Shown here: positions 1 through 20,346 of the stretch, in pieces
How positions within the stretch are numbered: the stretch's first letter is position 1
How the letters are laid out: every line of letters starts with the position of its first letter
Origin: an uncultured Methanosarcinales archaeon
Lineage (GTDB): Archaea; Nanobdellota; Nanobdellia; Woesearchaeales; CAZYIM01
Direction of reading: 5' to 3'
Assembly: GCA_964647565.1 (NCBI GenBank)
Contig: CAZYIM010000041.1
Coordinates: 1-20,346 of the forward strand
Length of the DNA: 20,346 bases
Translations under genes and position numbers: made by a program
Notes under the pieces: generated by a model
Told to the model about the DNA's origin: nothing
Databases searched by the model: none
Seen by the model: the letters and a program-made list of their open reading frames with translations, nothing else

Positions 1-748
1 CGAATACTGGCGTATATTTTTGGATGGTGAATTTTGTTTCAAGAATTATGTCACCTATATCTATTCCTCTGTGTACCCAGTCTTTATCTGCATGATTATC
101 TTTTGACCAATATAATTCTCCTCCATCAAATGTTCCTCTAATTGTTCTTTTAATGTTTTGATTATCATTATTTTCAAGAAGAGTTTTTTCTTTTTCAGGG
201 GAATAATCTTTTGCATCTATTTCGATAATATTTCCAACATCTATCTTGAGATCAGGTACAAGATCGTAAAGATTAACAACATAATTAAAATCTCTCGGAA
301 ACCAAAGATTTACATATTTTTCATTCTCATCAGATTTATCATTTATAAAAAATTTAAGTGCATAATCAGGACTAGGAAGTGTAATGTGATTTTTCCTCAT
401 TTTTTTCAATATATTCACAATTTCCATATTATTTTCAATTTGTATAAAATCATTCAGGTATGTCATTCCTAAGTACTTAGATTTGATTAAAGCAAGGTTG
501 GTATAATCATTAACCTGCGTTTCTTTCCAACCAGGTGTTTTCTCTTTGATTGTTTTCCTGAGGTCATTTGCTTTTTCAGAGTTGGGTCTGTTCGTCAGGA
601 TTTCACTGCCATCCTCCATTTCAGTATATTCATCTACATCCCATAATGAGATATAGTAGAAATTTCTTTTCATCTTTTTGAACTCTTTATTTCCTGTGAT
701 TCGCTCACTATTAAGAAATTTTTTTATTGTCTTCTGCCAATTCGTCAT
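1..748 (-). CDS. Array A paralog 6 (partial, runs off left edge), hypothetical protein
   Basis: Not in the ORF track; translated by hand. ATG at 748 overlaps the upstream TGA (ATGA). Open to the window edge: MTNWQKTIKKFLNSERI...RPNSEKA...VNDYTNLALIK...FDGG...KYTPVF, the same motifs as the other array A members. Confidence 0.9.
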   Translation of the reverse strand, partial: MTNWQKTIKKFLNSERITGNKEFKKMKRNFYYISLWDVDEYTEMEDGSEILTNRPNSEKANDLRKTIKEKTPGWKETQVNDYTNLALIKSKYLGMTYLNDFIQIENNMEIVNILKKMRKNHITLPSPDYALKFFINDKSDENEKYVNLWFPRDFNYVVNLYDLVPDLKIDVGNIIEIDAKDYSPEKEKTLLENNDNQNIKRTIRGTFDGGELYWSKDNHADKDWVHRGIDIGDIILETKFTIQKYTPVF

Positions 749-1503
749 TTTGCTTCCTCTTTGAAATCAATCTTCAGCTTGTCAAGAACCTGCTCGAGCT
801 GAGGTGTGTGTTTGTAGGCTATTATCTGTGTATTCATTTCCATCTTAGCATATTTATTCTGATGTACTTTGCCGCCGTCAAAATCACCAAGAACCCTCCT
901 GAACACCTTGTCTGCTATATTCTGGCTAAATTCATTTTCAATGGTCTGCCAGTCATATTCAGTGGCAAGCATGGTCTTATTGGCAGAATATACACACTCG
1001 ACCTTAAGTTCAGGAACCAGCTCTTTAAGCAATAAAACCTCATCAAATGTCTTGTTTACACAGATCTCTACATATTTTCTATCATCTTCTCCCATGGGAT
1101 CTACATTGAATTCAATCGTATAATCATCAGTCTCTTTGAATGCATGATGCTGTCCCCATGATCCTTGCGTCCATTGCTTATCGCCTTTTTTTGGCAGTTC
1201 ACGATTTTCAAAACTTAAATGTTCAAACTTTAGGAATGCCAGGTTGACATAGTCATCCACCTTGTCTAATTTTAAATCCCAACGATGGATGTCAGTCTCT
1301 AATTTGTTTCTTATCTCTTCCATCACTTTCTTGGATTCATATGAATTAGGTTTCCTGACTAGCTGCTTGGCCAAGTCAGTATGCATCTCTGCTCTTGATA
1401 ATACGACCTTCAAGAAATCTTGCTTTCTCTTCCTAAAAGCAAACCAGTTCTCCATCCTTTCTCCGTCTAAAAACTTCTTGATATATAGCTTCCAATCAGT
1501 CAT
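745..1503 (-). CDS. Array A paralog 5, hypothetical protein (252 aa)
   Basis: ORF with family motifs DWxxxIKKFL, FRKRK, KPNS, VNL, FDGG and HTP. A GGTGA RBS lies inside the end of the upstream gene. Confidence 0.9.
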   Translation of the reverse strand: MTDWKLYIKKFLDGERMENWFAFRKRKQDFLKVVLSRAEMHTDLAKQLVRKPNSYESKKVMEEIRNKLETDIHRWDLKLDKVDDYVNLAFLKFEHLSFENRELPKKGDKQWTQGSWGQHHAFKETDDYTIEFNVDPMGEDDRKYVEICVNKTFDEVLLLKELVPELKVECVYSANKTMLATEYDWQTIENEFSQNIADKVFRRVLGDFDGGKVHQNKYAKMEMNTQIIAYKHTPQLEQVLDKLKIDFKEEAK

Positions 1504-2236
1504 CTTGTTTCACCGTCTGTACCAGGTTTATATCGAGTTTATTTACAATTGTATCGAGAAAGGGGTGGTATTTGGTTATAATCATGTTGAAACTGAACCT
1601 GTTGGATTCTGTTGTAGGATATTGCTTGAAAGATATTCCATCACACTCATATTTAAGCTGCCTTTCTATCTGTCCGGGGACTGCATCTGAAATCACCTTG
1701 TTTACTGCCGCAGGATCATATCCTTGTGCGTCTGATGCATCGTTATAGCTGAAATGGGAAAGGATTTTCATCTTTGGGAAAAAGTCTTTGTTTTCAAAAA
1801 CCTTCTCAAAGGTGGTCTTGGCACTTATCTCAACCTTTCTTGGATTATCTTCGTGGTTGATATAGAAGCTGACCACAAAGTCCTCAACAGTGCTATAGAA
1901 ATGTGTTTGAAATGTTTGTGCACAATCATAACGCTTGTTTCCCATAAGTTCATGATCCATATAGTCCATGTTGGCAAATCCAGTTAAATCTTTGAATGCA
2001 TGTTTTCTTTGTTGGTCGGTCCTGCCCTGCAGATTCAAATTATGTGTTGCCATCAGATTCTGGGAGTTGGCCTTGTTTGGCTTAGTGACCAGCATCTTAG
2101 CATTCTTCGGATCCATACCTACATACTTCAAGGTTTCTTCAACAAGCATTATTTTCCTTTTCCTGAAAGCAAAATAGCCTTCCATACGTTCATTCTTCAA
2201 GAATTTCTTTATTATCGGATACCAGTCTATTTCCAT
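1496..2236 (-). CDS. Array A paralog 4, hypothetical protein (~246 aa)
   Basis: Family motifs DWYPIIKKFL, FRKRK, KPN, NMDY and KYHP. Start moved from GTG 2245 to ATG 2236 because AGGTGA at the upstream stop is the RBS. Confidence 0.9.
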   Translation of the reverse strand: MEIDWYPIIKKFLKNERMEGYFAFRKRKIMLVEETLKYVGMDPKNAKMLVTKPNKANSQNLMATHNLNLQGRTDQQRKHAFKDLTGFANMDYMDHELMGNKRYDCAQTFQTHFYSTVEDFVVSFYINHEDNPRKVEISAKTTFEKVFENKDFFPKMKILSHFSYNDASDAQGYDPAAVNKVISDAVPGQIERQLKYECDGISFKQYPTTESNRFSFNMIITKYHPFLDTIVNKLDINLVQTVKQDD

Positions 2237-2241
2237 ATTAA

Positions 2242-3000
2242 TCACCTTAGCTCCCTAAGATCTATTTCTAATCTTGAAAACATCTCATCTATCCTTGGCG
2301 TATACTTAGTAAGATTTATTTCGAGATTATGCATAACATCTGGTTCATAATCCAAAGTATCATCATCAGAACTATTTATAACTGGAATTGAGACATTGCT
2401 ATAGTCGATTGAACCGCCCTCGAAATTATAGTCAATAGTTTCTGCACCAAGATGTTCTACAACATTCACTTTACCATCGAGAATTGCTTGCCTATCATAT
2501 CCCTCTAATGAGAATTTTTCTTTAAAGGACATTGCCATCTCGACTTGTATATCTGGGAAAGCATCTGCAAGCTTTTTCATCTGATCAAATGTTCTTGTGG
2601 TCTTTAGCTCAATTTGATGCCTGTTCACTCCCTTAAAATTATATACTGAGAAGGTCATGATATATTCATCATTTGCAAACTCGACCTCATTTCCAATGTG
2701 TTCTACTTCTCCATCCTGAAACTCCCTATAGAGATAATCTATATTGGTCAGTGCATTTATTGAGTCAAAAGCGTTTGTGAAATACGAGGGTTTAGCCCCT
2801 GTTTTTTCCTTGAATTTCTCAATTAATCCAACTGATTTGGCTGATCGCGGAGAATAAGCTAAAATAAATGAATGTTTCTTATCCATTTCAACTTCCTCAA
2901 GCAGATATTCGACAACCTGCTTTCGTCTCTTCATATGAGAAAACCAGCTTTCAATCTTCTTATCATTTAAAAAAATCTTAATTATATCATCCCATTCCAT
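2242..3000 (-). CDS. Array A paralog 3, hypothetical protein (252 aa)
   Basis: Motifs WDDIIKIFL, KRRK, TNIDY, FEGG and KYTP. G-rich RBS upstream. Confidence 0.9.
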   Translation of the reverse strand: MEWDDIIKIFLNDKKIESWFSHMKRRKQVVEYLLEEVEMDKKHSFILAYSPRSAKSVGLIEKFKEKTGAKPSYFTNAFDSINALTNIDYLYREFQDGEVEHIGNEVEFANDEYIMTFSVYNFKGVNRHQIELKTTRTFDQMKKLADAFPDIQVEMAMSFKEKFSLEGYDRQAILDGKVNVVEHLGAETIDYNFEGGSIDYSNVSIPVINSSDDDTLDYEPDVMHNLEINLTKYTPRIDEMFSRLEIDLRELR

Positions 3001-3014
3001 TGATTACCCCCCTT

Positions 3015-3740
3015 CTATAATTCGATTCTTTTCAAGATCTCCTCTACAACAGGAGTATATTCTCTAAAATGTAAACTAAGTTCATTATTACCTTTTTGAT
3101 GATTATTATATACTAATGAAAAACCTTCCCCCTCATGATTAATAGATCCTAAAGTCCTCTCATCAAGATCAGCCTTAATTAGTTTTCGAACAACCTCAGG
3201 ATCATACCCTTTGGCATCATATGTATCATCGTGATTATATATTACTCTGACCTTCATATTAGGTATAAATTCAGCCAACTGTGTTGCTTCCTCCATTGTC
3301 CTATTGATATTCAGATTGACATATTTACCAAGGAGCTTATCAAATACTGCCAGGCCCAAATCAAGTTGATAATTATTCGTTTCTTTTTCAGTTGCCCAAA
3401 TAGTTTCATCAAAAACAGTATTATTTTGCTTTGATTCGTATCCAAACATCTCATGATGCATATAGTCGATGTTAACCAGTGCGGTTATATTATCTATGGC
3501 TTGTATATCTCTTGTTTGAAATCCTGAGTCCCAATTACTTAGATATTGATCAAACACTTTTTTTGCCTTAGCAAAATTAGAAAGGAAAGTTGCATTGAAC
3601 AGATCCTGTTTTGTATAATCTACGCCTGCACCATCCAACAAAATTCTTACAACCTTCTGTTTTCTCTTCTGGAAGTCTGCCCATCCATCAATCTTTTTAT
3701 CCTCTAGAAAATTCTTTATAGCTTTCTTTAAATCAGTCAT
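3015..3740 (-). CDS. Array A paralog 2, hypothetical protein (241 aa)
   Basis: Motifs IKNFLEDKK, FQKRK, VNIDY and EYTP. ATGA overlap with the upstream paralog. Confidence 0.9.
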   Translation of the reverse strand: MTDLKKAIKNFLEDKKIDGWADFQKRKQKVVRILLDGAGVDYTKQDLFNATFLSNFAKAKKVFDQYLSNWDSGFQTRDIQAIDNITALVNIDYMHHEMFGYESKQNNTVFDETIWATEKETNNYQLDLGLAVFDKLLGKYVNLNINRTMEEATQLAEFIPNMKVRVIYNHDDTYDAKGYDPEVVRKLIKADLDERTLGSINHEGEGFSLVYNNHQKGNNELSLHFREYTPVVEEILKRIEL

Positions 3741-4459
3741 TTATTAGCACCTTGTAAATTAATTCCCAGCTGAGTAATCACTTGTTCAGCTTCGGGAGTG
3801 AACCTGTGGAGAGTTAGAAATAAATCTTGTCCCTGTGTATGGAAGTTATCATACTCAACTTTGCCTCCATCGAATTGTAGATCGAATTTATACGAAATCT
3901 TTCCAGGTATAGAATTTTTCATAGTTTCTGTTGCACCTTCAAGATCTGTTTTGGCAGGATTCCATTCAATTTCATTCTTAAAATAAGATGTGATTTTGAT
4001 ATCATCATATATCTCGCCCAGCATTACAGCATCTTCTATCTTGCAAGGCATTCGTAAATATACGCGTTTGGGGAAATCATCACATACCAAGGCAAATTCA
4101 AGAGATATTATGTCATTAATTCTTCCTTTTGTACCATCCACGTAGGTCGGGTCTTTTCCTTGTTCTGTAACGAGCAGGGCCTGTATATAATCGATATTGG
4201 TAGCGCTGTTAAGATTATCCACTCTTGGGATTAATTTATGGTCTGGTTTCTTCCTGACTTTCTCTTTTATATTCTCTCTTAACTTCTCAGTTATTCTGCT
4301 GTTGGAAAAGTATGTCAATTTCAATACGCCTTCTTTTGGCATATCCAGAGTCTCAAACAAGTTATTAATAACTTTCTTCTTCCTTTTATAGAAATCTTTC
4401 CTTGACTCTAGCTTCTCATCTAAGAGAAATTTTTCAATAATATCCGACCAGTCCCGCAT
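3737..4459 (-). CDS. Array A paralog 1, hypothetical protein (240 aa)
   Basis: Motifs DWSDIIEKFL, FYKRK, TNIDY, FDGG and RFTP. First gene of the operon, with a TATA box ~25 nt upstream. Confidence 0.9.
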   Translation of the reverse strand: MRDWSDIIEKFLLDEKLESRKDFYKRKKKVINNLFETLDMPKEGVLKLTYFSNSRITEKLRENIKEKVRKKPDHKLIPRVDNLNSATNIDYIQALLVTEQGKDPTYVDGTKGRINDIISLEFALVCDDFPKRVYLRMPCKIEDAVMLGEIYDDIKITSYFKNEIEWNPAKTDLEGATETMKNSIPGKISYKFDLQFDGGKVEYDNFHTQGQDLFLTLHRFTPEAEQVITQLGINLQGANK

Positions 4460-11280: not shown

Positions 11281-11733
11281 TCAACCACAAACATCAATCT
11301 TGTATTTGCCTTGCTCCAGCTGTCCCATGACCTTCTCTATGTTGCAGATCTTATTTTTAAGGAACCTTTTTCTATCGATGTGGTAATTCACTTCTGCAGC
11401 ATTCATGGTCTCCATTGTGCTCCACCATTTGACCTGCGGTCTTATAGGATTATCTTCAAGCCTCAACAGATCTCTTAGGCAAAGATGTCTTATATCATAT
11501 AGGTCTCCGATTACATCACCTAACTGTTTAGGCTTTAATCTCATCATTTCGTATGTCTTCAAGTGCTCTTCGTCTTGCAAGGCCTCGAGTATGCCCAGGT
11601 TCTCTGCATTCTCAACCTCTATCAAGAGGTATTGCCTGTCCCTACTATCCTCGATAAGCTTTTTTAGCTTCTCGGATTTCCCTATCCATTCTGCTGCGCT
11701 ATTGCATAGCTCGTATAATTGTTTTTGTTTCAT
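11281..11733 (-). CDS. Hypothetical protein (~150 aa)
   Basis: Start moved to ATG 11733 (MKQKQLYELC), which follows the GGAGGG RBS at 11743-11738. Confidence 0.8.
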   Translation of the reverse strand: MKQKQLYELCNSAAEWIGKSEKLKKLIEDSRDRQYLLIEVENAENLGILEALQDEEHLKTYEMMRLKPKQLGDVIGDLYDIRHLCLRDLLRLEDNPIRPQVKWWSTMETMNAAEVNYHIDRKRFLKNKICNIEKVMGQLEQGKYKIDVCG

Positions 11734-11753
11734 TCTGCCCTCCTCTTTTGTTT

Positions 11754-12158
11754 TTATCTCATTATGTAGTCTATTCCTGCATTCTTCATCTTTTCTGCAA
11801 CTATCTTGATGACATCGTATCTCTTGCATTTGTTCAGCTTGTCGATGTGGTTGCTTAGTATCCTGTCTCTATCTTTCATGTTGTCCATCACTTTCAGTGC
11901 GACTTCGTAACATGCCACTTCGAGTAAGATTTCTCCCACTTCTTCCCTTAGCTTACCGGGCAGTTGCCTGTAGAGGCCGTTGCAGCCCGCTATTAACTCG
12001 TTCAACTTGACTCTATCATCGTTCTTTACCGCATTTATCTGGTCTTTAAGCTGATCTATGTTTGCTTTCAATATCAGCTGATCGATGCTTACCTTCTTGG
12101 GTTTGTTGAAGTAGTCTGGGTTGCCTATTAGTATTGGTTTTGGTTTTTGGTTGTTCAT
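11754..12158 (-). CDS. Hypothetical helical protein (134 aa)
   Basis: ORF preceded by a GAGGTGA RBS, co-oriented within the operon. Confidence 0.8.
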   Translation of the reverse strand: MNNQKPKPILIGNPDYFNKPKKVSIDQLILKANIDQLKDQINAVKNDDRVKLNELIAGCNGLYRQLPGKLREEVGEILLEVACYEVALKVMDNMKDRDRILSNHIDKLNKCKRYDVIKIVAEKMKNAGIDYIMR

Positions 12159-12181
12159 TTTGTTTCACCTCTTTCTTTTTT

Positions 12182-12901
12182 TTATAGTTTCCAGTATGCT
12201 TTTCGTATTGCTTTTGCAAGTTGTTTTGCTATGTATTCTCCGTTGTTTACAAACCTTAAGGTCTTGTTTATCTCAACCTGTATTGCGTGGTTATCTGTTT
12301 TAGCGTGGTGCTGTATCCCGTTATTCTTGTCCCAGGCGGGTTTGTAGCTTCCTATCAGCGCCCTTAGGCCCATGTTGGTTTTTAGTTTTGCATCCAGCAT
12401 CCTTCGCATTGTTTTTGTCATCTCGAAGTTAGCTTGTACTTTTCCTGTGTTGGTTCCTGCCTTTGGATGGTATTCTGCTCCCTGGTACTTTTGCTTCTGG
12501 GGGTTCCATTTTACACCTATTCCTATGTCTACTCCAAGGTCGTCCCTGTCTGCCATTCCATGTACGTAGACTATCAGAGTTCGTTTCTTTCCTTTGTGCA
12601 GCCCTTTTGCGTGTTGTTTTGCCTCTTCTGCGAGTTTGTCTATGCAGTTGTAGAACTCTTTCATCGGTTTTTTTCCGTTCTCATCTTGTTTTTCCATCTG
12701 TCGCAGGTCGTTGAAGTTGTGCTTTCTCTTATGGTGTATGTAGTTTATTACCAGGTATGCGCCCAGGTTTCTTGCCAGTTCTTCAGCGACTTGTCCTGTG
12801 TTCATGTCTGGCCCTGCTGCGTGTGGCGCTACTACAACAATGTTGGTGTGGCCTTTCCTGACTGTGCCGAAGAGTCTTTGTATTTCGTTCTCCAGTGGCA
12901 T
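12182..12901 (-). CDS. Zn-dependent hydrolase, N-formylglutamate amidohydrolase / poly-gamma-glutamate hydrolase-like (239 aa)
   Basis: Motifs VVVAPH...D-x-x-T, VYVHGM, DIGIG and HAIQVEINKTLR match the Zn-exopeptidase-fold pattern. SD GGAGGTG at 12914-12908. Substrate unknown. Confidence 0.75.
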   Translation of the reverse strand: MPLENEIQRLFGTVRKGHTNIVVVAPHAAGPDMNTGQVAEELARNLGAYLVINYIHHKRKHNFNDLRQMEKQDENGKKPMKEFYNCIDKLAEEAKQHAKGLHKGKKRTLIVYVHGMADRDDLGVDIGIGVKWNPQKQKYQGAEYHPKAGTNTGKVQANFEMTKTMRRMLDAKLKTNMGLRALIGSYKPAWDKNNGIQHHAKTDNHAIQVEINKTLRFVNNGEYIAKQLAKAIRKAYWKL

Positions 12902-12907
12902 TCAATT

Positions 12908-12973
12908 CACCTCCGAGTGTTTTTACACGAGGGGTGCCAGCAACTTGTTGCTCAGCACCTCCTTGTTTTTTTT
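12908..12973 (-). promoter_or_regulatory. Candidate translational attenuator: two alternative hairpins plus A8 slippery run
   Basis: Two GGAGGTG copies (12962-12956 and the SD at 12914-12908) compete for one CACCCC (12936-12931). A8 run at 12973-12966. Confidence 0.5.
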
Positions 12974-13032
12974 CTAAGCTCTGCCAGCTCTATGGCCAGC
13001 TCGTACAGTTTGATTCTTTGGTTGTCGTCCAT
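12952..13032 (-). CDS. Leader peptide / uORF (26 aa; 36 aa if -1 shifted, ending at 12923)
   Basis: MDDNQRIKLYELAIELAELRKKTRRC*. TATA box TTTATATA (13064-13057) lies 25 nt upstream. Confidence 0.6.
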   Translation of the reverse strand: MDDNQRIKLYELAIELAELRKKTRRC

Positions 13033-13056
13033 TTTACTACTTATAAGTAATTATAA

Positions 13057-13064
13057 TATATAAA
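13057..13064 (-). promoter_or_regulatory. TATA box of the 13032-11281 operon
   Basis: TTTATATA preceded by CAAACG, 25 nt before the uORF ATG. Confidence 0.55.
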
Positions 13065-14410: not shown

Positions 14411-14489
14411 CCTTGTAACCCGCCTTGTTTTCCGTGAAGTCATGATATGAATCGGTAATAAACTTTGTTTTTTTTGCAAGGATCATATT

Positions 14490-15785
14490 TTAATTGTTAA
14501 AATCATAAAAATGGTCAACACCTTCTCTGTGAATGGTGTTGGGCATATCTATCCTGTTTTCAATAGGTTTGGGAGACCATACATCTCTTACCTGTTCAAT
14601 TTTTAACTTCTTTCTTCGGAGTTCACCAATAACCTCAACATACCTAAAATAGGTCCTGCCATCAATTACACGCCTTTCCATCTCATGTGCATTTGCATAA
14701 TCCAACATCAAGGCAACATTATCAGCCATATCTCCTGTGCTGTTTCTCTCTAATATTATTGTATTGTTCTCAAAATCCTCAAGAAAAGCTTTGATGCCGT
14801 TATCATTGTAATTCACACCCTTTATTGAACCTACCATCTTAATCTCTGGATAGTTATCCAATATCCTGGCTTCCTCTGCAGTCAGATAAGCATTCTTGAA
14901 ATTTGCAGTATCATAATCTTTATCAAAACTGATCTCATGCTGTGCACTTTTTATTCTCCTTGAATCAGAAATTGAGTTAAGATTTAAAATACCTCCAAAA
15001 GAACCAGAGTAATCTCCGATAACTCTTGCAACAGTTGGTCGTTGGTTAAGCATGTCAATAATTGCAAGTCCTCTTGAGAATGCATCTCTTTCCCTGCTGC
15101 TTTGGCTGTTGGGCTGTTTTCTATAAACCAGCACATCATTACCCATGCCATCACCTAATACAAACGCCAAACCATTACCTTCCATAAAGCCAAAGATATT
15201 TCCTTTGACAGCTATATTGCCTATCAGGGTATCACCCTTAACAGCCATTTTTTTTAGCTGTGCTAGGCTGTATTCTCGGGCTTTTGGCCTGACCTCCATG
15301 CCCTCGAATAGATTGCTTAAATCCATGTTTTCATCAAGAATGATATTATTATAATTCAATCTCATGACATCGATATTTCCTTCATCAATGCTGCCTGTTA
15401 CAGTCACATCTCGAGGTATCCTAAGAATTTCATTCATATCAAATAGTGCACCAGCCAATGTGGCTATCTTGGAATTGTCCATCAGTTTGCAATATGCCCT
15501 TTCGTTGGAGGTGTTTTCGATAAAGAATTTCAAACCTCCCTTGTAGACCTTGCCATGGGGCGTGCCTTGTATCCTTATAAGATGATCTAAGGAATCAGTA
15601 GCCGCAGTAGTGTCGTTTTGGACAAAAGTGGGAACCTCTGAGATCGGGATATCAAATATCCTGTAATTCTCTTGTGTTGCAGGGATCTCAGGAAGCTTGT
15701 TGCCAGAATTACATGCAACCCAGGTTGCTATAGAACCCGCTGCAAATAATGTTGATAATGCTAATCGTTTAAACCATGTTTTCAT
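14490..15785 (-). CDS. Predicted lipoprotein with three OB-fold-like repeats (~431 aa)
   Basis: Signal MKTWFKRLALSTLFAAGSIATWVAC resembles the array B signals. Three internal repeats follow the pattern IxxxGxxxG...G.xF.L.D..N...V.V.G. The start follows AGGTGA. Confidence 0.85.
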   Translation of the reverse strand: MKTWFKRLALSTLFAAGSIATWVACNSGNKLPEIPATQENYRIFDIPISEVPTFVQNDTTAATDSLDHLIRIQGTPHGKVYKGGLKFFIENTSNERAYCKLMDNSKIATLAGALFDMNEILRIPRDVTVTGSIDEGNIDVMRLNYNNIILDENMDLSNLFEGMEVRPKAREYSLAQLKKMAVKGDTLIGNIAVKGNIFGFMEGNGLAFVLGDGMGNDVLVYRKQPNSQSSRERDAFSRGLAIIDMLNQRPTVARVIGDYSGSFGGILNLNSISDSRRIKSAQHEISFDKDYDTANFKNAYLTAEEARILDNYPEIKMVGSIKGVNYNDNGIKAFLEDFENNTIILERNSTGDMADNVALMLDYANAHEMERRVIDGRTYFRYVEVIGELRRKKLKIEQVRDVWSPKPIENRIDMPNTIHREGVDHFYDFNN

Positions 15786-15790
15786 TTTGT

Positions 15791-16300
15791 TCACCTTAAG
15801 TTATCTTGTGTACGTTCGATCATTTTGATCATACCATTCAGATTTTGATCGATTACCCTATTACTCAATTCATCCACTTTATTATTGTTATATCTGATAA
15901 ATCTATCTAAAAATTGCTTAACTGTGAAAGGGTCTGTAGGATTGAAGGTTTCATACATCAGAGAGTATCGTCTGTTCAAGACAAGTTCTCGTGGAAAAGG
16001 TAATAAAAGCGAAATCTCTCCTGTCGGCACTTCAAAAGTTGAAGTATAATATATATGTGTAAAACCTTCACCTCCATAATCAAAGTTTATCGACCCCGAA
16101 TTTAATGATATCAATTTCGAATTTGGTTCTGTAATGTGGGAACTTCTCCAGGTTGTATCAACAACTGCTGTTGCTTGTGATTGTTTTTCAGTTTGATAAT
16201 ATGGTTGTTCAGGTTCATCATTACCGCATGCAAGCCATCCTCCAACAGATCCTAGCAAAACCAAACTGGGTAATACAATTTTCTTTAATTTTTTGTTCAA
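15791..16300 (-). CDS. Array B lipoprotein paralog (~169 aa, TTG start)
   Basis: TTG 16300, after AGGTGA, gives (M)NKKL as in sibling genes. Lipobox WLAC; core STF...LLLPFP...RY...YE...NLNGM. Confidence 0.85.
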   Translation of the reverse strand: MNKKLKKIVLPSLVLLGSVGGWLACGNDEPEQPYYQTEKQSQATAVVDTTWRSSHITEPNSKLISLNSGSINFDYGGEGFTHIYYTSTFEVPTGEISLLLPFPRELVLNRRYSLMYETFNPTDPFTVKQFLDRFIRYNNNKVDELSNRVIDQNLNGMIKMIERTQDNLR

Positions 16301-16305
16301 TATAT

Positions 16306-16818
16306 TCACCTTAGATCAGTCTGAGATTGTCCAATTTGCCTTATCATACCATCAAGATTGCTGTCAATAGGCCGATCATTCAATGCTTCAACTATATAAG
16401 TTCTATACCTGATGAATCTATCTGTAAAATTCTTAACTGTAAAAGGTGCTGCAGGATTAAATGTTTCATATTTGACATCATATCTTCTGTTTAATATAAT
16501 CTCTTTTGGGAATGGCAATAAAAGGCTAAACTCTTTATTGGGCATCTTGAATGTTGCAGTGTAATATGTATGTGTAAATCCTTCATCACCATAAGCAAAA
16601 TTGATTGTGCCATGATTCAACGAAATCAGCTTAGCACCAGGTTCATTTATGGTCTCCTTCTGCCATAATGAGTCAGGCACGACACTAGAGTGGGATTCGG
16701 TTTCCACATATGGCTTTTCAGCAGGTGGTGGTTCATCTTCATCACATGCCATCATTACAGCTGCTGAGCCTGTTAAAAACAATCCTGTTAGTAAAAGACT
16801 TTTTAGTGTTTTTTTCAT
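16306..16818 (-). CDS. Array B lipoprotein paralog (170 aa)
   Basis: Lipobox MMAC; its core is closest to 15791..16300. Confidence 0.9.
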   Translation of the reverse strand: MKKTLKSLLLTGLFLTGSAAVMMACDEDEPPPAEKPYVETESHSSVVPDSLWQKETINEPGAKLISLNHGTINFAYGDEGFTHTYYTATFKMPNKEFSLLLPFPKEIILNRRYDVKYETFNPAAPFTVKNFTDRFIRYRTYIVEALNDRPIDSNLDGMIRQIGQSQTDLR

Positions 16819-16822
16819 TTTA

Positions 16823-17308
16823 TTACCTTAATGATTCATATGGAGTTATATCCAATAAGATACCGTCGAGATTCTTGTCTAACACAAAATTAGGTGCAAG
16901 CTCAGGATTGCCGCAATTCTTTTTCTTTAAGAAGCGGTTTGCAAAATCCTGCGCTGTGTATGGTTTGTTCTTGTCCAGGACTTCATATTCCAATCTATGC
17001 CTTGTGTTAGGCATAAGTTGTTTTGGGAACGGAATGACAAGATTGATGCTCTCGTTTGGAAGTTCGAATGTTGCCATCTGGAACTCATGTGTATGTGCTC
17101 CGCTTCCGTACGAGTAGTTGATATTTCCTGTGTTCAGATAGGTGAACTTGGCATTCTCAATCTTCTCAATGTTTAATTTTGCCGCTGCAGCTGCTGCAGC
17201 CTCTGCTTCTTTTCTTTTTTTCTCAGGACAATCGCATGCCATCCATACGCCGGCAGATCCTAGCAGGAATAGACCGGTTAATACAGTGTGTTGTAGTTTT
17301 TTGTTCAT
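16823..17308 (-). CDS. Array B lipoprotein paralog (161 aa)
   Basis: Lipobox WMAC, poly-Ala linker, HEFQMATFELPN and NLDGI. Confidence 0.9.
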   Translation of the reverse strand: MNKKLQHTVLTGLFLLGSAGVWMACDCPEKKRKEAEAAAAAAAKLNIEKIENAKFTYLNTGNINYSYGSGAHTHEFQMATFELPNESINLVIPFPKQLMPNTRHRLEYEVLDKNKPYTAQDFANRFLKKKNCGNPELAPNFVLDKNLDGILLDITPYESLR

Positions 17309-17580
17309 TTTTTACCTCAGTTCTTCATGTGCTTTATGAGTTTTCAAAATCCCGTCAAGAGAGGGATCTAATTCAAAATCAGGAAAGACTTCAGGAACAC
17401 TGACATCTTTATATCCTAAAAAACGAGAAGCAAATTCCTGTGCAGTGTATGCTTTTGCTGGATCGAGAGTCTCATATTCGATACTATATCTACGATTAGG
17501 CATTAGATGTCTGGAAAATGGAACAAGCAGATCAACTTCTCCATTAGGAAGTTCGAATGTTGCCATCTGGAACTCATGTG
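17058..17580. repeat. Exact 34-nt direct repeat (17058-17091 and 17547-17580)
   Basis: GGAAGTTCGAATGTTGCCATCTGGAACTCATGTG appears in two adjacent paralogs and encodes HEFQMATFELP. Confidence 0.9.
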
Positions 17581-17821
17581 AAGATCCCCGTCTGTAATGA
17601 CCATAATTAATTGTGCCAGTGTTCAAGTATAAAAATTTTGCATTATCTGCCTTTTCAACTTTACTGACAAACTTCATGGATACATATCCTAATGAGTCTG
17701 CTGCTGCAGCTTCTTGCCGCACAGGCTCTTCTTCAGGAGCTTTTGAGCATGCCATCCATGTTGCTGCAGAACCTGCAAGGAACAATGTTGGAATGATTAT
17801 ATTTCTTAGTATTTTGTTCAT
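17312..17821 (-). CDS. Array B lipoprotein paralog (~169 aa)
   Basis: Start moved to ATG 17821 (MNKILRNIIIPTLFLAGSAATWMAC); motifs QMATF, LLVP and SLDGI. Confidence 0.9.
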   Translation of the reverse strand: MNKILRNIIIPTLFLAGSAATWMACSKAPEEEPVRQEAAAADSLGYVSMKFVSKVEKADNAKFLYLNTGTINYGHYRRGSSHEFQMATFELPNGEVDLLVPFSRHLMPNRRYSIEYETLDPAKAYTAQEFASRFLGYKDVSVPEVFPDFELDPSLDGILKTHKAHEELR

Positions 17822-18414
17822 TTTTATCATCTTATTTTTTTTGTAAAACTTCCAGGTCAATGAGTATGCCATCAAGATTCTTATCAAATTCATAATTATC
17901 CTGGTCTACTGAGTAAGATTCCTTTACAAATCGTTTTAGATAATCTTCTGCAGTAAAAACCTGGTTTGATTGGAAAGGTTCGTAAATAACTTTGTATCTT
18001 TGGTTGGGAACCAAGACCTTGGGATGAGGTATTAAAAGCTCGATATTCTCTTCAGGCATTTGAAATGTTGCCATCTGATACATCTTGGATCTAGCACCTG
18101 AGTACCAACCATAACTCATGAGGCCATCATTATAATAAACAAGCTTCACATTTTCTAATGTTATATTCTCGATTTCTTCTACAGCTGTTGAGTCTTCAGG
18201 TATCGCGCTTTCAGTTGAAGTATTGTTTCTAACTTCATCTGAAGGATCTGGTATGCCTTTCTCGCATGCCATCCATGTTGCTGCTGAACCTGCTAGGAAC
18301 AATGTTGGAATGATTATGTTTCTAAGTTTTTTGTTCATTTTTATCGTCTTATTTTTTTTGTAAAATTTCCAGGTCCATGACTATGCCGTCCAGATTTTGA
18401 TCCAGTTCATAGTT
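17747..18414. repeat. ~151-nt imperfect junction repeat (17747-17897 and 18264-18414)
   Basis: Hand alignment gives about 16 mismatches and no gaps. It covers the upstream C-terminus, the intergenic spacer and the downstream signal peptide up to the lipobox Cys. Confidence 0.9.
17832..18338 (-). CDS. Array B lipoprotein paralog (168 aa)
   Basis: Lipobox WMAC; motifs YQMATF, LLIPHP and NLDGI. Confidence 0.9.
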   Translation of the reverse strand: MNKKLRNIIIPTLFLAGSAATWMACEKGIPDPSDEVRNNTSTESAIPEDSTAVEEIENITLENVKLVYYNDGLMSYGWYSGARSKMYQMATFQMPEENIELLIPHPKVLVPNQRYKVIYEPFQSNQVFTAEDYLKRFVKESYSVDQDNYEFDKNLDGILIDLEVLQKK

Positions 18415-18873
18415 TGGAATTGCTCTTAATTCTGAGAGTATAAACCTGTTTGCGAAATCTTGGGCAAGATAAGTGGACTTAGGATCTAATGGTTCATATT
18501 CCAGTTTATACCTTGTCTGGTGTGCCAGGTTTTTTGGATATGGAATCAACAAATCAATATGTCCCTTTGGTGTTTCAAAAGTGGCCATCTGATATGTATG
18601 ACTCAATCCTACATTGCCTGAATAAGAGATTATACTCGCAGTGGTATAGCTGATAAGTTTAACATTATCTAATTGGATATTCTTGTTTTTCTTAACAACT
18701 GCTGTATCATGTGGAACTATTGCTGAATCTTCTTGTGCAGTGCTTTCAGTTGTATAGATGTCAGAGGTCTCTTTTGCAGGATCCTCAGTGGCCTCGGCAC
18801 ATGCCAGCCATACAGCTGCTGAACTTACAACAAACAGACTTTGATATAATAGTCTTTTTAGTTTTTTGTTCAT
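18349..18873 (-). CDS. Array B lipoprotein paralog (174 aa)
   Basis: Lipobox WLAC; motifs YQMATF, LLIPYP and NLDGI. Confidence 0.9.
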   Translation of the reverse strand: MNKKLKRLLYQSLFVVSSAAVWLACAEATEDPAKETSDIYTTESTAQEDSAIVPHDTAVVKKNKNIQLDNVKLISYTTASIISYSGNVGLSHTYQMATFETPKGHIDLLIPYPKNLAHQTRYKLEYEPLDPKSTYLAQDFANRFILSELRAIPNYELDQNLDGIVMDLEILQKK

Positions 18874-18876
18874 TTT

Positions 18877-19368
18877 TTACCTCAGTTCTTTGATAGGTTT
18901 GATTTGATGTACAATGCCATCCAGGTTTCCAGATAGTCTATAATCAGGTAATGCTGAAATCTCTTTTTTAAAGAATCTTGCAAAGAATTTATGCGCGGTC
19001 AAACCGTGGATAACTGGCAAGGGTTCATATTTCAGTTCGTAAGATTTGTTAGGTACTAGAGACTCAGGAATCGGGATCAACAAATCCATCTCATTATTAG
19101 GAAACTTGAAAGTGGCCATCTGATATTGATGTGTTACGCCGATTTCATTAAAATAGCCACTGACAACGCCTGTACTGAAATACAGGAGTTTTGCACTAGG
19201 CACATCTACTAATTTAAGTCTTGATTCCCATTGAGCAGCCCTTGCTGAGTCTGCTGCCGCTCCCATCTTCCTGTTTTCTTCAGCAACGTCTTTTATTGTC
19301 TGGCAGCCTCCATACAATAATAGCGCTCCCGCAGTAATAAACGGCAGTGCATATTTTCTTAGTTTCAT
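18877..19368 (-). CDS. Array B lipoprotein paralog (163 aa)
   Basis: Lipobox YGGC; motifs YQMATF, LLIP and NLDGI. Confidence 0.9.
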   Translation of the reverse strand: MKLRKYALPFITAGALLLYGGCQTIKDVAEENRKMGAAADSARAAQWESRLKLVDVPSAKLLYFSTGVVSGYFNEIGVTHQYQMATFKFPNNEMDLLIPIPESLVPNKSYELKYEPLPVIHGLTAHKFFARFFKKEISALPDYRLSGNLDGIVHQIKPIKELR

Positions 19369-19946
19369 TTTAATTGTTTATATTCTTTAATGCTTGTAAG
19401 GACAGCATCCAGGTTTCTATCCAGTCTAATATTGTCCATAGTTGAATATGATTCGCTAACAAATGTATGTACGAATTTTTCAGCATTGAAGGCTACATCT
19501 TTGTTTATCATCTGGTATGAGATGTCATATTTGGTTTGCGTCATGAGAATCTTTGCTTGAGGTATCAAGACCTTGAGCTGTTCGGTCTGACTTATCTGGA
19601 AGGTTGCATATTGGATATGTCTTGAATCACTTCTGCTGTGCTTTGAATCGAATGAACCATATGATTTGCAAAAGTTCACATGACTGTCATTGTAACCTAA
19701 TAATTTAGCACCATAAGCTTGATTAACCTTTTCTTGAAGCAATGATCCCTCCATTGCTTTATCGCTTTTGCTTTTTACAGCTTCAGTCCATGTGTCTACA
19801 GGTTTTTCTGGCTCTGATTCTGTGCTCTCAACAGAGAAAATAGGCTCTGCTGGTTTTTCCTGCGACTTATTAATTAACATGGAACCTGCTAAACCTAGTA
19901 TGCTCAAAATTGCTGTTATTGTTAATACTTTTATTCTTCTTGCCAT
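19365..19946 (-). CDS. Array B paralog with N-terminal TM/signal but no lipobox Cys (~193 aa)
   Basis: N-terminus MARRIKVLTITAILSILGLAGSMLIN; core IQYATF, VLIP and NLDAV. Confidence 0.85.
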   Translation of the reverse strand: MARRIKVLTITAILSILGLAGSMLINKSQEKPAEPIFSVESTESEPEKPVDTWTEAVKSKSDKAMEGSLLQEKVNQAYGAKLLGYNDSHVNFCKSYGSFDSKHSRSDSRHIQYATFQISQTEQLKVLIPQAKILMTQTKYDISYQMINKDVAFNAEKFVHTFVSESYSTMDNIRLDRNLDAVLTSIKEYKQLK

Positions 19947-19951
19947 TTTTA

Positions 19952-20346
19952 TCACATTATTGGTTTTATATTATCGATTATGCCGACGAGTTTATTGCTT
20001 AGCTCATAATTGTCTAGAGTGTCAAAGGATCGGTCGACATAGACACGAACAAATTTTTCGACTGTAAGCTTAGAGTTAGGCAATAATTTCCTGTAATCTA
20101 ACTCGTAGATTGAGTTAGGTACAAGTGGCTCTGCCTTGGGTATCAAAAGCGAGACTTTTTCCTTGCCGATTAGGAAAGTTGGCATCTGGTAATGTCTGAA
20201 TGGGCTGAAACTGTATGTTGCATCTTCACCTTCTTCATGTGCAAATGTGTAGCGAGCGTTTCCATCTGTTACACTAAGCTGTTTTGCTCTTGGAATTTTA
20301 AGATGTTCATCAATGGCTATAGTGCTGTTACTTGCTTTTCCCTTTT
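19952..20346 (-). CDS. Array B paralog (partial, start beyond right edge)
   Basis: The frame is open from the edge: KGKASNSTIAIDEHLKIPRAKQLSVTDG...HYQMPTF...LLIP...LVGI. The track's 77-aa call is truncated. Confidence 0.85.
   Translation of the reverse strand, partial: KGKASNSTIAIDEHLKIPRAKQLSVTDGNARYTFAHEEGEDATYSFSPFRHYQMPTFLIGKEKVSLLIPKAEPLVPNSIYELDYRKLLPNSKLTVEKFVRVYVDRSFDTLDNYELSNKLVGIIDNIKPIM

Follow-up and report, generated by a model that had tools for sequence, protein, structure and literature searches.

A multi-copy leader RNA before unrelated genes in one archaeal order, and a possible two-state gate on its Shine-Dalgarno sequence

The leader and its locus

The window analyzed here (20,346 nt) is the complete contig C41 of a metagenome-assembled archaeal genome (G000; 2.68 Mb in 86 contigs, 87% complete), and on its minus strand, to which all leader coordinates below refer, the gene for a putative hydrolase is preceded by a short upstream open reading frame (uORF), a run of eight A residues (A8) and two copies of GGAGGTG, the second of which is the Shine-Dalgarno (SD) sequence of the gene (Table 1). 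An earlier note, made from the letters alone, had taken these parts for a translational attenuator of the hydrolase, in which ribosomes on the uORF choose between two hairpins; the uORF, A8, both GGAGGTG copies and the hydrolase start are all present where it placed them. Comparison with other sequences leads to a different reading, in which positions 12967-12893 contain one of many copies of a cis-acting leader RNA that is specific to this lineage. The contig also encodes an archaeal-type glutamate-tRNA ligase, related genomes of the same order range from 0.6 to 2.1 Mb, and the sequencing runs that contain the window sequence are marine or seawater metagenomes, with no RNA runs among those listed.

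The leader consists of three segments that can pair in two ways. The middle segment, A', is complementary to an SD-like 5' arm, A, which holds the first GGAGGTG (12962-12956), and to the true SD, A''. Pairing of A' with A gives hairpin 1 (12963-12930), which encloses the inner stem-loop P1b, and pairing with A'' gives hairpin 2 (12936-12908), of which the small spacer hairpin P2b is the inner part. Because the 3' end of 16S ribosomal RNA in the same genome (contig C15) reads ...CUGCGGAUGGAUCACCUCCU, GGAGGUGA is a full-strength SD in this organism; A'' is complementary to that end (...GGAUCACCUCCU). Pairs of GGAGGTG on the same strand, spaced 30-70 nt apart, occur only 3 times in the 2.68 Mb.

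The uORF runs into this structure, and its final two codons and stop (AGG UGC UGA) derive from the repeated element itself, with the UGA inside a conserved CUGAG at the hairpin 1 junction. By the usual spacing of archaeal promoters, the uORF at 13032 would be leaderless or nearly so; there is a second TATA-like stretch (CTTATAAG, ~13047-13040), and the transcription start of the uORF leader is uncertain. The geometry of a -1 frameshift signal that the earlier note described is also there, with A_AAA_AAA at 12973-12967 in frame 0, the base of hairpin 1 lying 3 nt on and its core stem 7 nt on. The -1 frame crosses the repeat for 14 codons and ends at a TAA (12925-12923) at the edge of the hairpin 2 loop, as had been described.

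Table 1. Features of the leader and the hydrolase gene in the window
Feature	Positions	Strand	Description
TATA-box-like promoter element TTTATATA	13057..13064	-	Centre ~28 nt upstream of the uORF ATG; read from the sequence
uORF	12952..13032	-	26 codons plus stop (MDDNQRIKLYELAIELAELRKKTRRC); ATG 13032, TGA 12954-12952
A8 run	12966..12973	-	A_AAA_AAA in frame 0 (AGA AAA AAA ACA); ends 3 nt before the hairpin 1 base
Full copy of the conserved leader motif	12893..12967	-	Covariance-model match: R1, 82.6 bits, E = 8.6e-21; R2, 73.5 bits
Segment A, SD-like 5' arm of hairpin 1	12954..12963	-	A GG A GGUGCU; decoy SD, anti-anti-SD
P1b, inner stem-loop	12939..12952	-	AGCAA[CAAG]UUGCU; separated from the outer stem by bulged G12953
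Segment A', anti-SD-like 3' arm	12930..12938	-	GGCACCCCU; pairs with A (hairpin 1) or the true SD (hairpin 2)
P2b, small spacer hairpin	12917..12928	-	GUGU[AAAA]ACAC; in both states, inner part of hairpin 2
Segment A'', true SD	12908..12914	-	GGAGGUG; 6 nt upstream of the start codon
Hydrolase gene	12182..12901	-	239 aa; ATG 12901-12899

Copies of the leader in one archaeal order

Comparison of the leader with its own genome by blastn revealed an 81% match over 57 nt on contig C56 that spans exactly the stretch from hairpin 1 to the SD, and short-word blastn combined with inspection yielded further copies on C38 and C8. Among these four copies the outer stem changes in a compensatory manner (GGUGCU/GGCACC to GGUUCU/GGAACC), and since the element is read in different frames, or is untranslated, from copy to copy, its conservation is at the nucleic-acid level. 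A covariance model built on the four copies (R1, with the window copy as one of its seeds) identified 14 places in the genome at E < 1e-5, and a model rebuilt from 38 matches (R2) identified 21, which correspond to about 20 copies. In a sample of 151 genomes of the same order, 47 contained at least one R2 match at E ≤ 1e-3, with 15, 8, 7 and 5 copies in four genomes, 1-4 in most others and none in 104. A phylum-wide sample gave matches at E ≤ 1e-4 in 25 of 151 genomes, and every listed matching genome was from the same order. One exact variant was found on 6 metagenome contigs with its layout unchanged. Searched against Rfam 15, the window copy gave 7 matches at E ≤ 10, all far under the gathering threshold, and 20 other copies gave none at E ≤ 1. 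One alignment row (L128) derives from G131, a genome marked unpublished, and no conclusion rests on it.

Across 71 copies, the 5' part of the consensus comprises an A-rich flank, G-GAGGU-N-CU, a bulged G, AGAAA, a CAA(A)G loop and UUUCU, and the 3' part continues with GG-N'-ACC-UC(C), a UCGUAAA or AU-rich spacer, ACUCGGAGGUG, 5-8 nt and AUG. The order of parts within this motif of ~70 nt is SD-like 5' arm, stem-loop, anti-SD 3' arm, spacer, true SD and AUG. The two G's of the segment A consensus stand at 0.99 and 0.96, and the sequence of P1b, of its loop (CAA..G) and of the bulged-G junction is conserved more strongly than base pairing would require. Every copy that we analyzed lies in sense orientation, with the SD-like core 4-16 nt upstream of an ATG.

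The genes that follow the copies include those for ribosomal proteins S12, S2 and L24e, an acidic ribosomal protein, EF-2, SBDS, Rpb6, histone and FtsZ, as well as peroxiredoxin, Band 7, cysteine desulfurase and UDP-glucose dehydrogenase, together with small DNA-binding proteins, secreted or membrane proteins and many unknowns. Upstream contexts were equally varied among the 58 copies that we classified. A same-strand open reading frame (ORF) of 60 or more codons precedes 30 of them, stopping just before or at the 5' arm in 20, at the conserved CUGA/CUUAG in 2 and elsewhere inside the element in 3, and reading through to the next start in 5; another 8 have only an ORF of 20-59 codons upstream, and in the remaining 20 no ORF of 20 or more codons lies upstream.

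Three individual loci deserve mention. Around the copy on C56 (locus L002/L098, positions 742-3052 of L002) lie at least three tandem paralogues of ~265-273 aa that start M-K-x-I-x-A-G-S-G-K-(K)n, and the first of these ends in 15 extra C-terminal residues that are encoded by the element, read in frame. On C8 (L006, 636-790), the gene downstream of the element encodes a 344-aa, pyruvate-kinase-barrel-like protein whose first 12 residues (MKVIATVPPYAP) also occur in a 33-codon ORF ending through the element; six codons differ between the two, all synonymously, and the SD is repeated too. The short ORF may have been left behind when a tandem paralogue was deleted, or it may be a leader peptide under selection. 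On C48 (L007, ~14440-14560), an AT-rich intergenic stretch also contains the palindrome AGCAACAAGTTGCT, flanked on each side by a direct copy of ATGGGCCTGCGGAGAC; no SD or start codon follows, and the model score is just 15.6 bits.

Two helices sharing an anti-Shine-Dalgarno arm

Comparison among copies supports both of the mutually exclusive helices that share the anti-SD, strongly for hairpin 1 and moderately for hairpin 2. This core of the earlier proposal, two alternative pairings of which the second hides the real SD, has held up, with both pairings recurring and showing compensatory changes over some 58-71 copies. For hairpin 1, 93.6% of alignment cells are paired in the 71 copies compared to 79.5 ± 0.8% in shuffles, with 97 cells showing double-sided changes (23 ± 4 in shuffles). 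Compensatory changes affect 9 of its 11 pairs, including those of the inner stem, where AU, GC and CG replace one another; registers slid along the alignment pair in only 44-67% of cells, and an alignment of 38 rows supports the hairpin as well. The energy of the A:A' duplex averages -11.47 within copies versus -8.18 ± 0.32 between copies, a value reached by none of 5,000 permutations. A U-G wobble conserved in 47 of the 71 copies further indicates that pairing takes place in the sense-strand RNA.

Hairpin 2 was evaluated on a MAFFT alignment that had not been fitted to structure, which revealed 64 double-sided changes compared to 35 ± 4.5 in shuffles (0 of 500) and pairing in 67% of cells versus 35-53% in slid registers. 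The A':A'' duplex is likewise stronger within copies (-9.60) than between them (-7.35 ± 0.24; 0 of 5,000 permutations). In most of the 58 copies, the SD is paired within the hairpin that the stretch from A' to A'' forms when folded alone. With segment A blocked, at least four of the five SD-core bases are paired in 50 of 58 copies (86%), as opposed to 20 of 58 in the unconstrained minimum free energy (MFE) structure and 47% in controls with the A'-spacer stretch shuffled. In some copies the tail of A' fits a variant true SD better than it fits A (CACCUUU/AAAGGUG on C38, ACCCCU/AGGGGU in L134), and in many the spacer forms stems of differing sequence that stack on the anti-SD/SD pairing (CAAAAU/AUUUUG, CUGAGAU/AUCUCAG, CCAAUU/AAUUGG and UCUUUUUG/CAAAAAGA). 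Hairpin 2 is of similar strength in copies with an upstream ORF (-7.4 kcal/mol, n = 30) and without one (-7.8 kcal/mol, n = 20).

For the 175-nt leader of the window copy, the MFE and centroid structures both contain hairpin 1 (-18.0 kcal/mol alone), and hairpin 2 (-11.7 kcal/mol alone) is represented in the MFE structure only by its inner GUGU/ACAC stem. The MFE is -23.6 kcal/mol, compared to -15.4 kcal/mol with segment A blocked, a gap of 8.2 kcal/mol that leaves the SD-hiding fold of the earlier proposal uncompetitive at equilibrium. Hairpin 2 becomes the MFE structure once the 5' arm is blocked, or once the RNA is blocked through +9 to +15 nt past the uORF stop. Given its composition, the whole leader does not fold unusually well (z = -1.89; matched by 10 of 200 shuffles).

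Possible roles of the element and its surroundings

We tentatively favor, with slightly less than even confidence, the view that the element is a two-state leader RNA that gates the SD, being ON by default and OFF when its 5' arm is occupied. Pairing of A' with A would form the long hairpin 1, leave the SD largely free and allow translation, and pairing of A' with A'' would form hairpin 2, bury the SD and block initiation. Hairpin 1, which is transcribed first and is ~8 kcal/mol more stable, would set the ON state as the default, and the leader would switch to OFF only while segment A is unavailable, either occupied or removed. At the window locus the occupant could be a ribosome finishing the 26-codon uORF, whose UGA lies within hairpin 1; roughly half of the copies follow another ORF, and there a terminating ribosome would be the obvious candidate. 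The idea from the earlier note that normal termination hides the SD is therefore only partly retained: it is reasonable at the window locus and at copies behind ordinary genes, because a ribosome-like block at the UGA gives hairpin 2 in silico, but it is not general, as 20 of 58 copies have no upstream ORF. Since those copies keep an equal hairpin 2, and P1b and the junction are conserved in sequence, the general trigger is more likely to be trans-acting, perhaps a protein or a 30S subunit that recognizes P1b and the junction or the SD-like arm.

Several results weigh against such a gate. On average the hairpin 2 state trails the hairpin 1 state by 7.9 kcal/mol in stability, and with such a deficit hairpin 2 may never form in cells. 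Its comparative signal is also open to other explanations: the structure that we counted was chosen after the sequences had been inspected and pairs in just 67% of cells, the spacer stem P2b, which is compatible with hairpin 1, contributes much of the signal, and complementarity between anti-SD and SD is automatic because A' already pairs with the SD-like segment A. RNAalifold gave no consensus pairs on the alignment from A' to A''. By eye, changes in the variable base of A' are not mirrored by the base that follows GGAGGU in the true SD, and a rigid-register test for three-way complementarity past the SD core was mostly indistinguishable from permutations; because of that near-null result, we regard the extended X / X' / X pattern of a few copies (L153, L151, L148 and C29) as a feature of a subset. 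Nor is the SD entirely exposed in the presumed ON state, with a mean unpaired probability of 0.49 for the SD core in the unconstrained ensemble and, in the unconstrained MFE structure of the window copy, weak pairing of four of its five SD bases with coding sequence. Pairing counts for hairpin 1 are inflated by the fitting of its alignments to the model, although compensatory changes are evident in the raw sequences too. Finally, the downstream genes form no coherent regulon, and their Pfam families are mutually unrelated.

The most credible alternative, although in our estimation an unlikely one, is that the element is a constitutive structural leader whose only functional fold is hairpin 1 with the small spacer hairpin, hairpin 2 being a by-product. 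Such a leader could insulate the gene, stabilize the RNA against 5' decay, act as a standby platform that presents the SD in single-stranded form immediately behind a stable helix, or bring an upstream stop near a downstream start. It would account for the presence of hairpin 1 in the MFE structure of nearly all copies with ~8 kcal/mol more stability than the alternative, for its expected folding ahead of hairpin 2 in transcription, for its much stronger covariation, for the lack of a hairpin 2 consensus in RNAalifold, for the upstream stops at the 5' base of hairpin 1 (20 of 58 copies) and for the many downstream genes of housekeeping kinds that are usually expressed at high levels (EF-2, acidic ribosomal protein, histone, Rpb6, FtsZ, peroxiredoxin, S12, S2 and L24e). 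However, a plain stabilizer needs no anti-SD, and a by-product would hardly be expected to show an A' tail that matches some variant SDs better than it matches A, a covarying spacer stem stacked onto the A':SD pairing, or an excess of SD pairing over shuffled controls when A is blocked. In some of the upstream flanks, TATA-like boxes also lie, by eye, at variable distances of ~25-50 nt from the start of the motif, and we dropped a fixed 5'-terminal cap for this reason. The leader of Bacillus thuringiensis cryIIIA offers a partial parallel in its STAB-SD, an SD-like sequence that is not used for initiation; here, by contrast, the SD-like sequence is base-paired within a hairpin, and half of the copies are internal to operons, not 5'-terminal.

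Less probable still, and in our judgment quite improbable, is a selfish or neutral dispersed repeat, a hairpin that copies itself into ribosome-binding sites, duplicates the SD and serves no host function. Its distribution is patchy (four genomes have 21, 15, 8 and 7 copies and most others 0-5), the genes behind it are unrelated, and empty sites exist at orthologues and paralogues. Genes that carry the element in two other genomes (G005 or G002) mostly lack it in G000, with the exception of one homologous pair in which both have it. Empty sites read stop, SD and start, and occupied sites have SD-like sequence on either side of ~45-50 extra bases, as for L24e (TAGAGGTGTTCATGATG in G000 versus TAGAGGT, 48 nt and GGAGGTGTAAAATG in G005); the element is likewise absent from a neighboring junction between the C56 paralogues. 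Direct repeats of at least 10 nt flank 6 of 59 copies, compared to 36 of 3422 cross-copy pairs, and one copy of 105 nt (L133, G070:C95, 119-223) contains a second partial core (GUGCUUAGAAAU..AUUUCUGGCACC) and a small GC hairpin within its P1b loop, a nesting that hints at copy-and-paste.

Against such a repeat, no two of the 37 copies in alignment A2 are more than 79% identical and identity is nearly equal within and between genomes (0.612 versus 0.590), which argues for old copies under selection, and we accordingly read the element, from these comparisons, as probably old and held to its consensus. Apart from the hairpin itself there are no terminal inverted repeats. The Y1 transposase family PF01797 was not found in G000 (87% complete), G002 or G133, three of the five genomes checked, and the TnpB-type domain PF07282 was found only in G005. 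A search of viral contigs for one common exact variant returned no matches, which for so narrow a pattern is weak evidence. On four metagenome contigs (L161, L163, L164 and L165) the same upstream gene end (..GTTGGTGCCAAAGATAT..) is followed by the element, two of them differing in the downstream gene starts, and this recurrence suggests vertical retention; the conserved wobble pairs, being specific to the sense strand, also favor a function as RNA. REP/BIME, Correia and ERIC sequences and archaeal MITEs resemble the element in being short, multi-copy, hairpin-forming and intergenic, with presence or absence at orthologous sites and covarying stems. It differs from them in being strictly sense, at a fixed distance from a start codon and equipped with a functional SD, in its identity of at most 79%, in having no consistently associated transposase and in its spread across many families of one order. 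Copy number and presence/absence agree with a MITE or REP-like mobile repeat, but near-identical copies among the 37 compared and a cognate transposase in the genomes checked were not found.

Returning to the SD gate, its closest relatives in principle are the expression platforms of riboswitches and attenuators such as the thiamine pyrophosphate (TPP) riboswitch thiM, in which a middle segment likewise pairs with either neighbor, the first segment is SD-like and access to the SD is the output. Unlike these, the element has no recognizable aptamer, only a stem-loop of 5-7 bp with a bulged G; it is archaeal and missing from Rfam 15, it reaches ~20 copies per genome, and its genes are unrelated, where a metabolite riboswitch would be expected to serve a coherent pathway. 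The likeness to ermC/cat attenuation that had been suggested does not extend to the mechanism. Both place a translated leader beside alternative hairpins that include a downstream SD, and at this one locus the uORF ends in the first hairpin, but the polarity is reversed: a ribosome on the first segment frees the SD in ermC, whereas here blocking the first arm pairs it, in the window copy and in 50 of 58 copies. The element also has no conserved leader peptide (20 of 58 copies have none), stalling motif or antibiotic link. The lambda cIII leader (RF01804) and RNA thermometers share the use of alternative folds that expose or occlude a ribosome site, but the match of RF01804 at 12926-12965 is at chance level (15.7 bits versus a gathering threshold of 50, E = 1.1), and the SD-occluding fold is the less stable one here. 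K-turns, T-box-like UGGN, integron attC sites and IS200/IS605 ends were rejected on sequence grounds (no tandem G-A pairs, the variable N paired in the helix, AAC/GTT central rather than terminal).

On sequence evidence, the most fitting description of the element is probably that of a new class of SD-gating leader RNA, rich in members and found in one archaeal order, which operates on a known principle. Few cis-regulatory RNAs are known in archaea; none of this kind in DPANN turned up in the titles of the literature searched, and Rfam had no match. If the two-state fold works, the leader would show how archaea with reduced genomes set or coordinate translation, using a compact, recognizable module of ~70 nt, present in up to ~20 copies per genome before core genes (EF-2, FtsZ, histone and ribosomal proteins) and testable in vitro. 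For annotation, the element explains apparent decoy SDs, short spurious uORFs and odd C-terminal extensions of upstream genes.

A more ambitious version, which we consider very improbable, is a genome-wide gate read by the translation apparatus itself. P1b and A' resemble the 3' end of 16S ribosomal RNA, a hairpin followed by ..UGG-CACCUCCU compared to ..GAUGGAUCACCUCCU in the organism's own 16S, so that hairpin 1 could be a cis mimic of the SD/anti-SD helix, and a free 30S subunit, or a protein whose normal role is to bind or process the 16S 3' end, might attach to the SD-like arm or to the mimic and so flip the leader to the SD-hidden fold or cut it. If true, this would tie dozens of unrelated, often highly expressed genes to ribosome availability, and DPANN archaea would have their first described class of multi-gene riboregulator.

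The uORF and A8 run are, as far as the copies tell, local context outside the device. Both had been given a part in the original attenuator, in which translation of a leaderless uORF, with -1 slippage or with variation between A8 and A9, sets the exposure of the SD. In favor of this, the TATA-like box stands at promoter distance from the uORF ATG, the heptamer lies 3-7 nt before a stable hairpin as in -1 programmed frameshift signals (for which the Sulfolobus fucosidase gene is an archaeal precedent), the uORF stop falls inside hairpin 1, where a footprint-sized block gives hairpin 2, and the -1 frame ends in the hairpin 2 loop. But no other copy shows the A8/slippery arrangement, the 5' flank is A-rich in the consensus generally, and A/T runs of 8 or more number 784 in the genome. 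The short uORFs of other copies are unrelated to that of the window, their common R-C-stop ending being the AGG UGC UGA of the element, as is the RRC-stop of the window uORF; with 20 of 58 copies lacking an upstream ORF and 30 following ordinary genes, hairpin 1 is independent of any upstream ORF. A conserved trans-frame product was not seen, as neither the 0-frame nor the -1-frame product has relatives in the organism's own genome or at the listed loci inspected, and no functional -1 product is apparent.

Logan contigs from all 4 runs (2 studies) that span the A run read A8 with no differing letters and no indels, which rules out a simple assembly error; low-level length variation is still possible, as these contigs are shallow (2-4x) and contigs drop rare variants. 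Accordingly, neither the A8/A9 heterogeneity that had been suggested nor an A9 sequence misassembled as A8 was seen at this depth. The hydrolase homologues give the same answer. We fetched 29 homologue loci, found with 8 closer sequences, and scanned 28 of them; only two weak matches to the element resulted (E = 0.094 and 0.51), neither just upstream of the gene, so that none of the 28 has the element before its hydrolase gene, and none of the 13 archaeal leaders that we read has a similar uORF. Covariation, which the earlier note proposed to look for in leaders of hydrolase homologues, is found among dispersed copies before unrelated genes. We regard an attenuator specific to this locus as extremely doubtful.

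The hydrolase itself has no match of its own in Pfam, NCBIfam or PHROG. A word-indexed protein search returned only the query, and an exhaustive HMMER search found 62 relatives. PF05908 matches 8 of 30 family members (best E = 2.6e-4; none above cut-off for the window protein), and a sequence match of the family to poly-gamma-glutamate hydrolase in the PDB is weak (E = 0.11). The predicted structure is confident, with a predicted local distance difference test (pLDDT) score of 96.2, and resembles 2odf, 3a9l and 2q7s with template modelling (TM) scores of 0.49-0.59, folds of the FGase, PghP and zinc-carboxypeptidase-type amidohydrolases. Given the weak PF05908 matches and this resemblance to FGase/PghP-type amidohydrolases, 'hydrolase' is a fair label, and the protein is a candidate for an FGase- or poly-gamma-glutamate-hydrolase-like zinc amidohydrolase fold; H27, H114 and E210 are invariant in 30 family sequences. 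Hosts of the relatives include Woese-, Micr-, Nano- and Aenigmarchaeota, Thermoplasmatota, Patescibacteria and others, and this scatter of the family over DPANN archaea, Thermoplasmatota, Patescibacteria and gammaproteobacterial metagenome-assembled genomes suggests horizontal transfer.

The surroundings of the gene are also distinct in composition. Positions 11281-13050 of the window form an island with a GC content of 0.43-0.47 (flanks, ~0.33-0.38) and an AT skew of -0.39 to -0.54, which contains the uORF, the hydrolase gene and two orphan ORFs (134 and 182 aa) that overlap by 76 nt and have no second copy in the genome. Toward the two ends of the window, both on the minus strand, lie two tandem arrays of diverged paralogues (2-4459 and 15791-20344), one of six ORFs (240-252 aa, 20-33% identity) and the other of eight or nine (161-196 aa, 22-55%). 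None of the array ORFs matches a Pfam family above cut-off, and one has a weak match to DUF7922.

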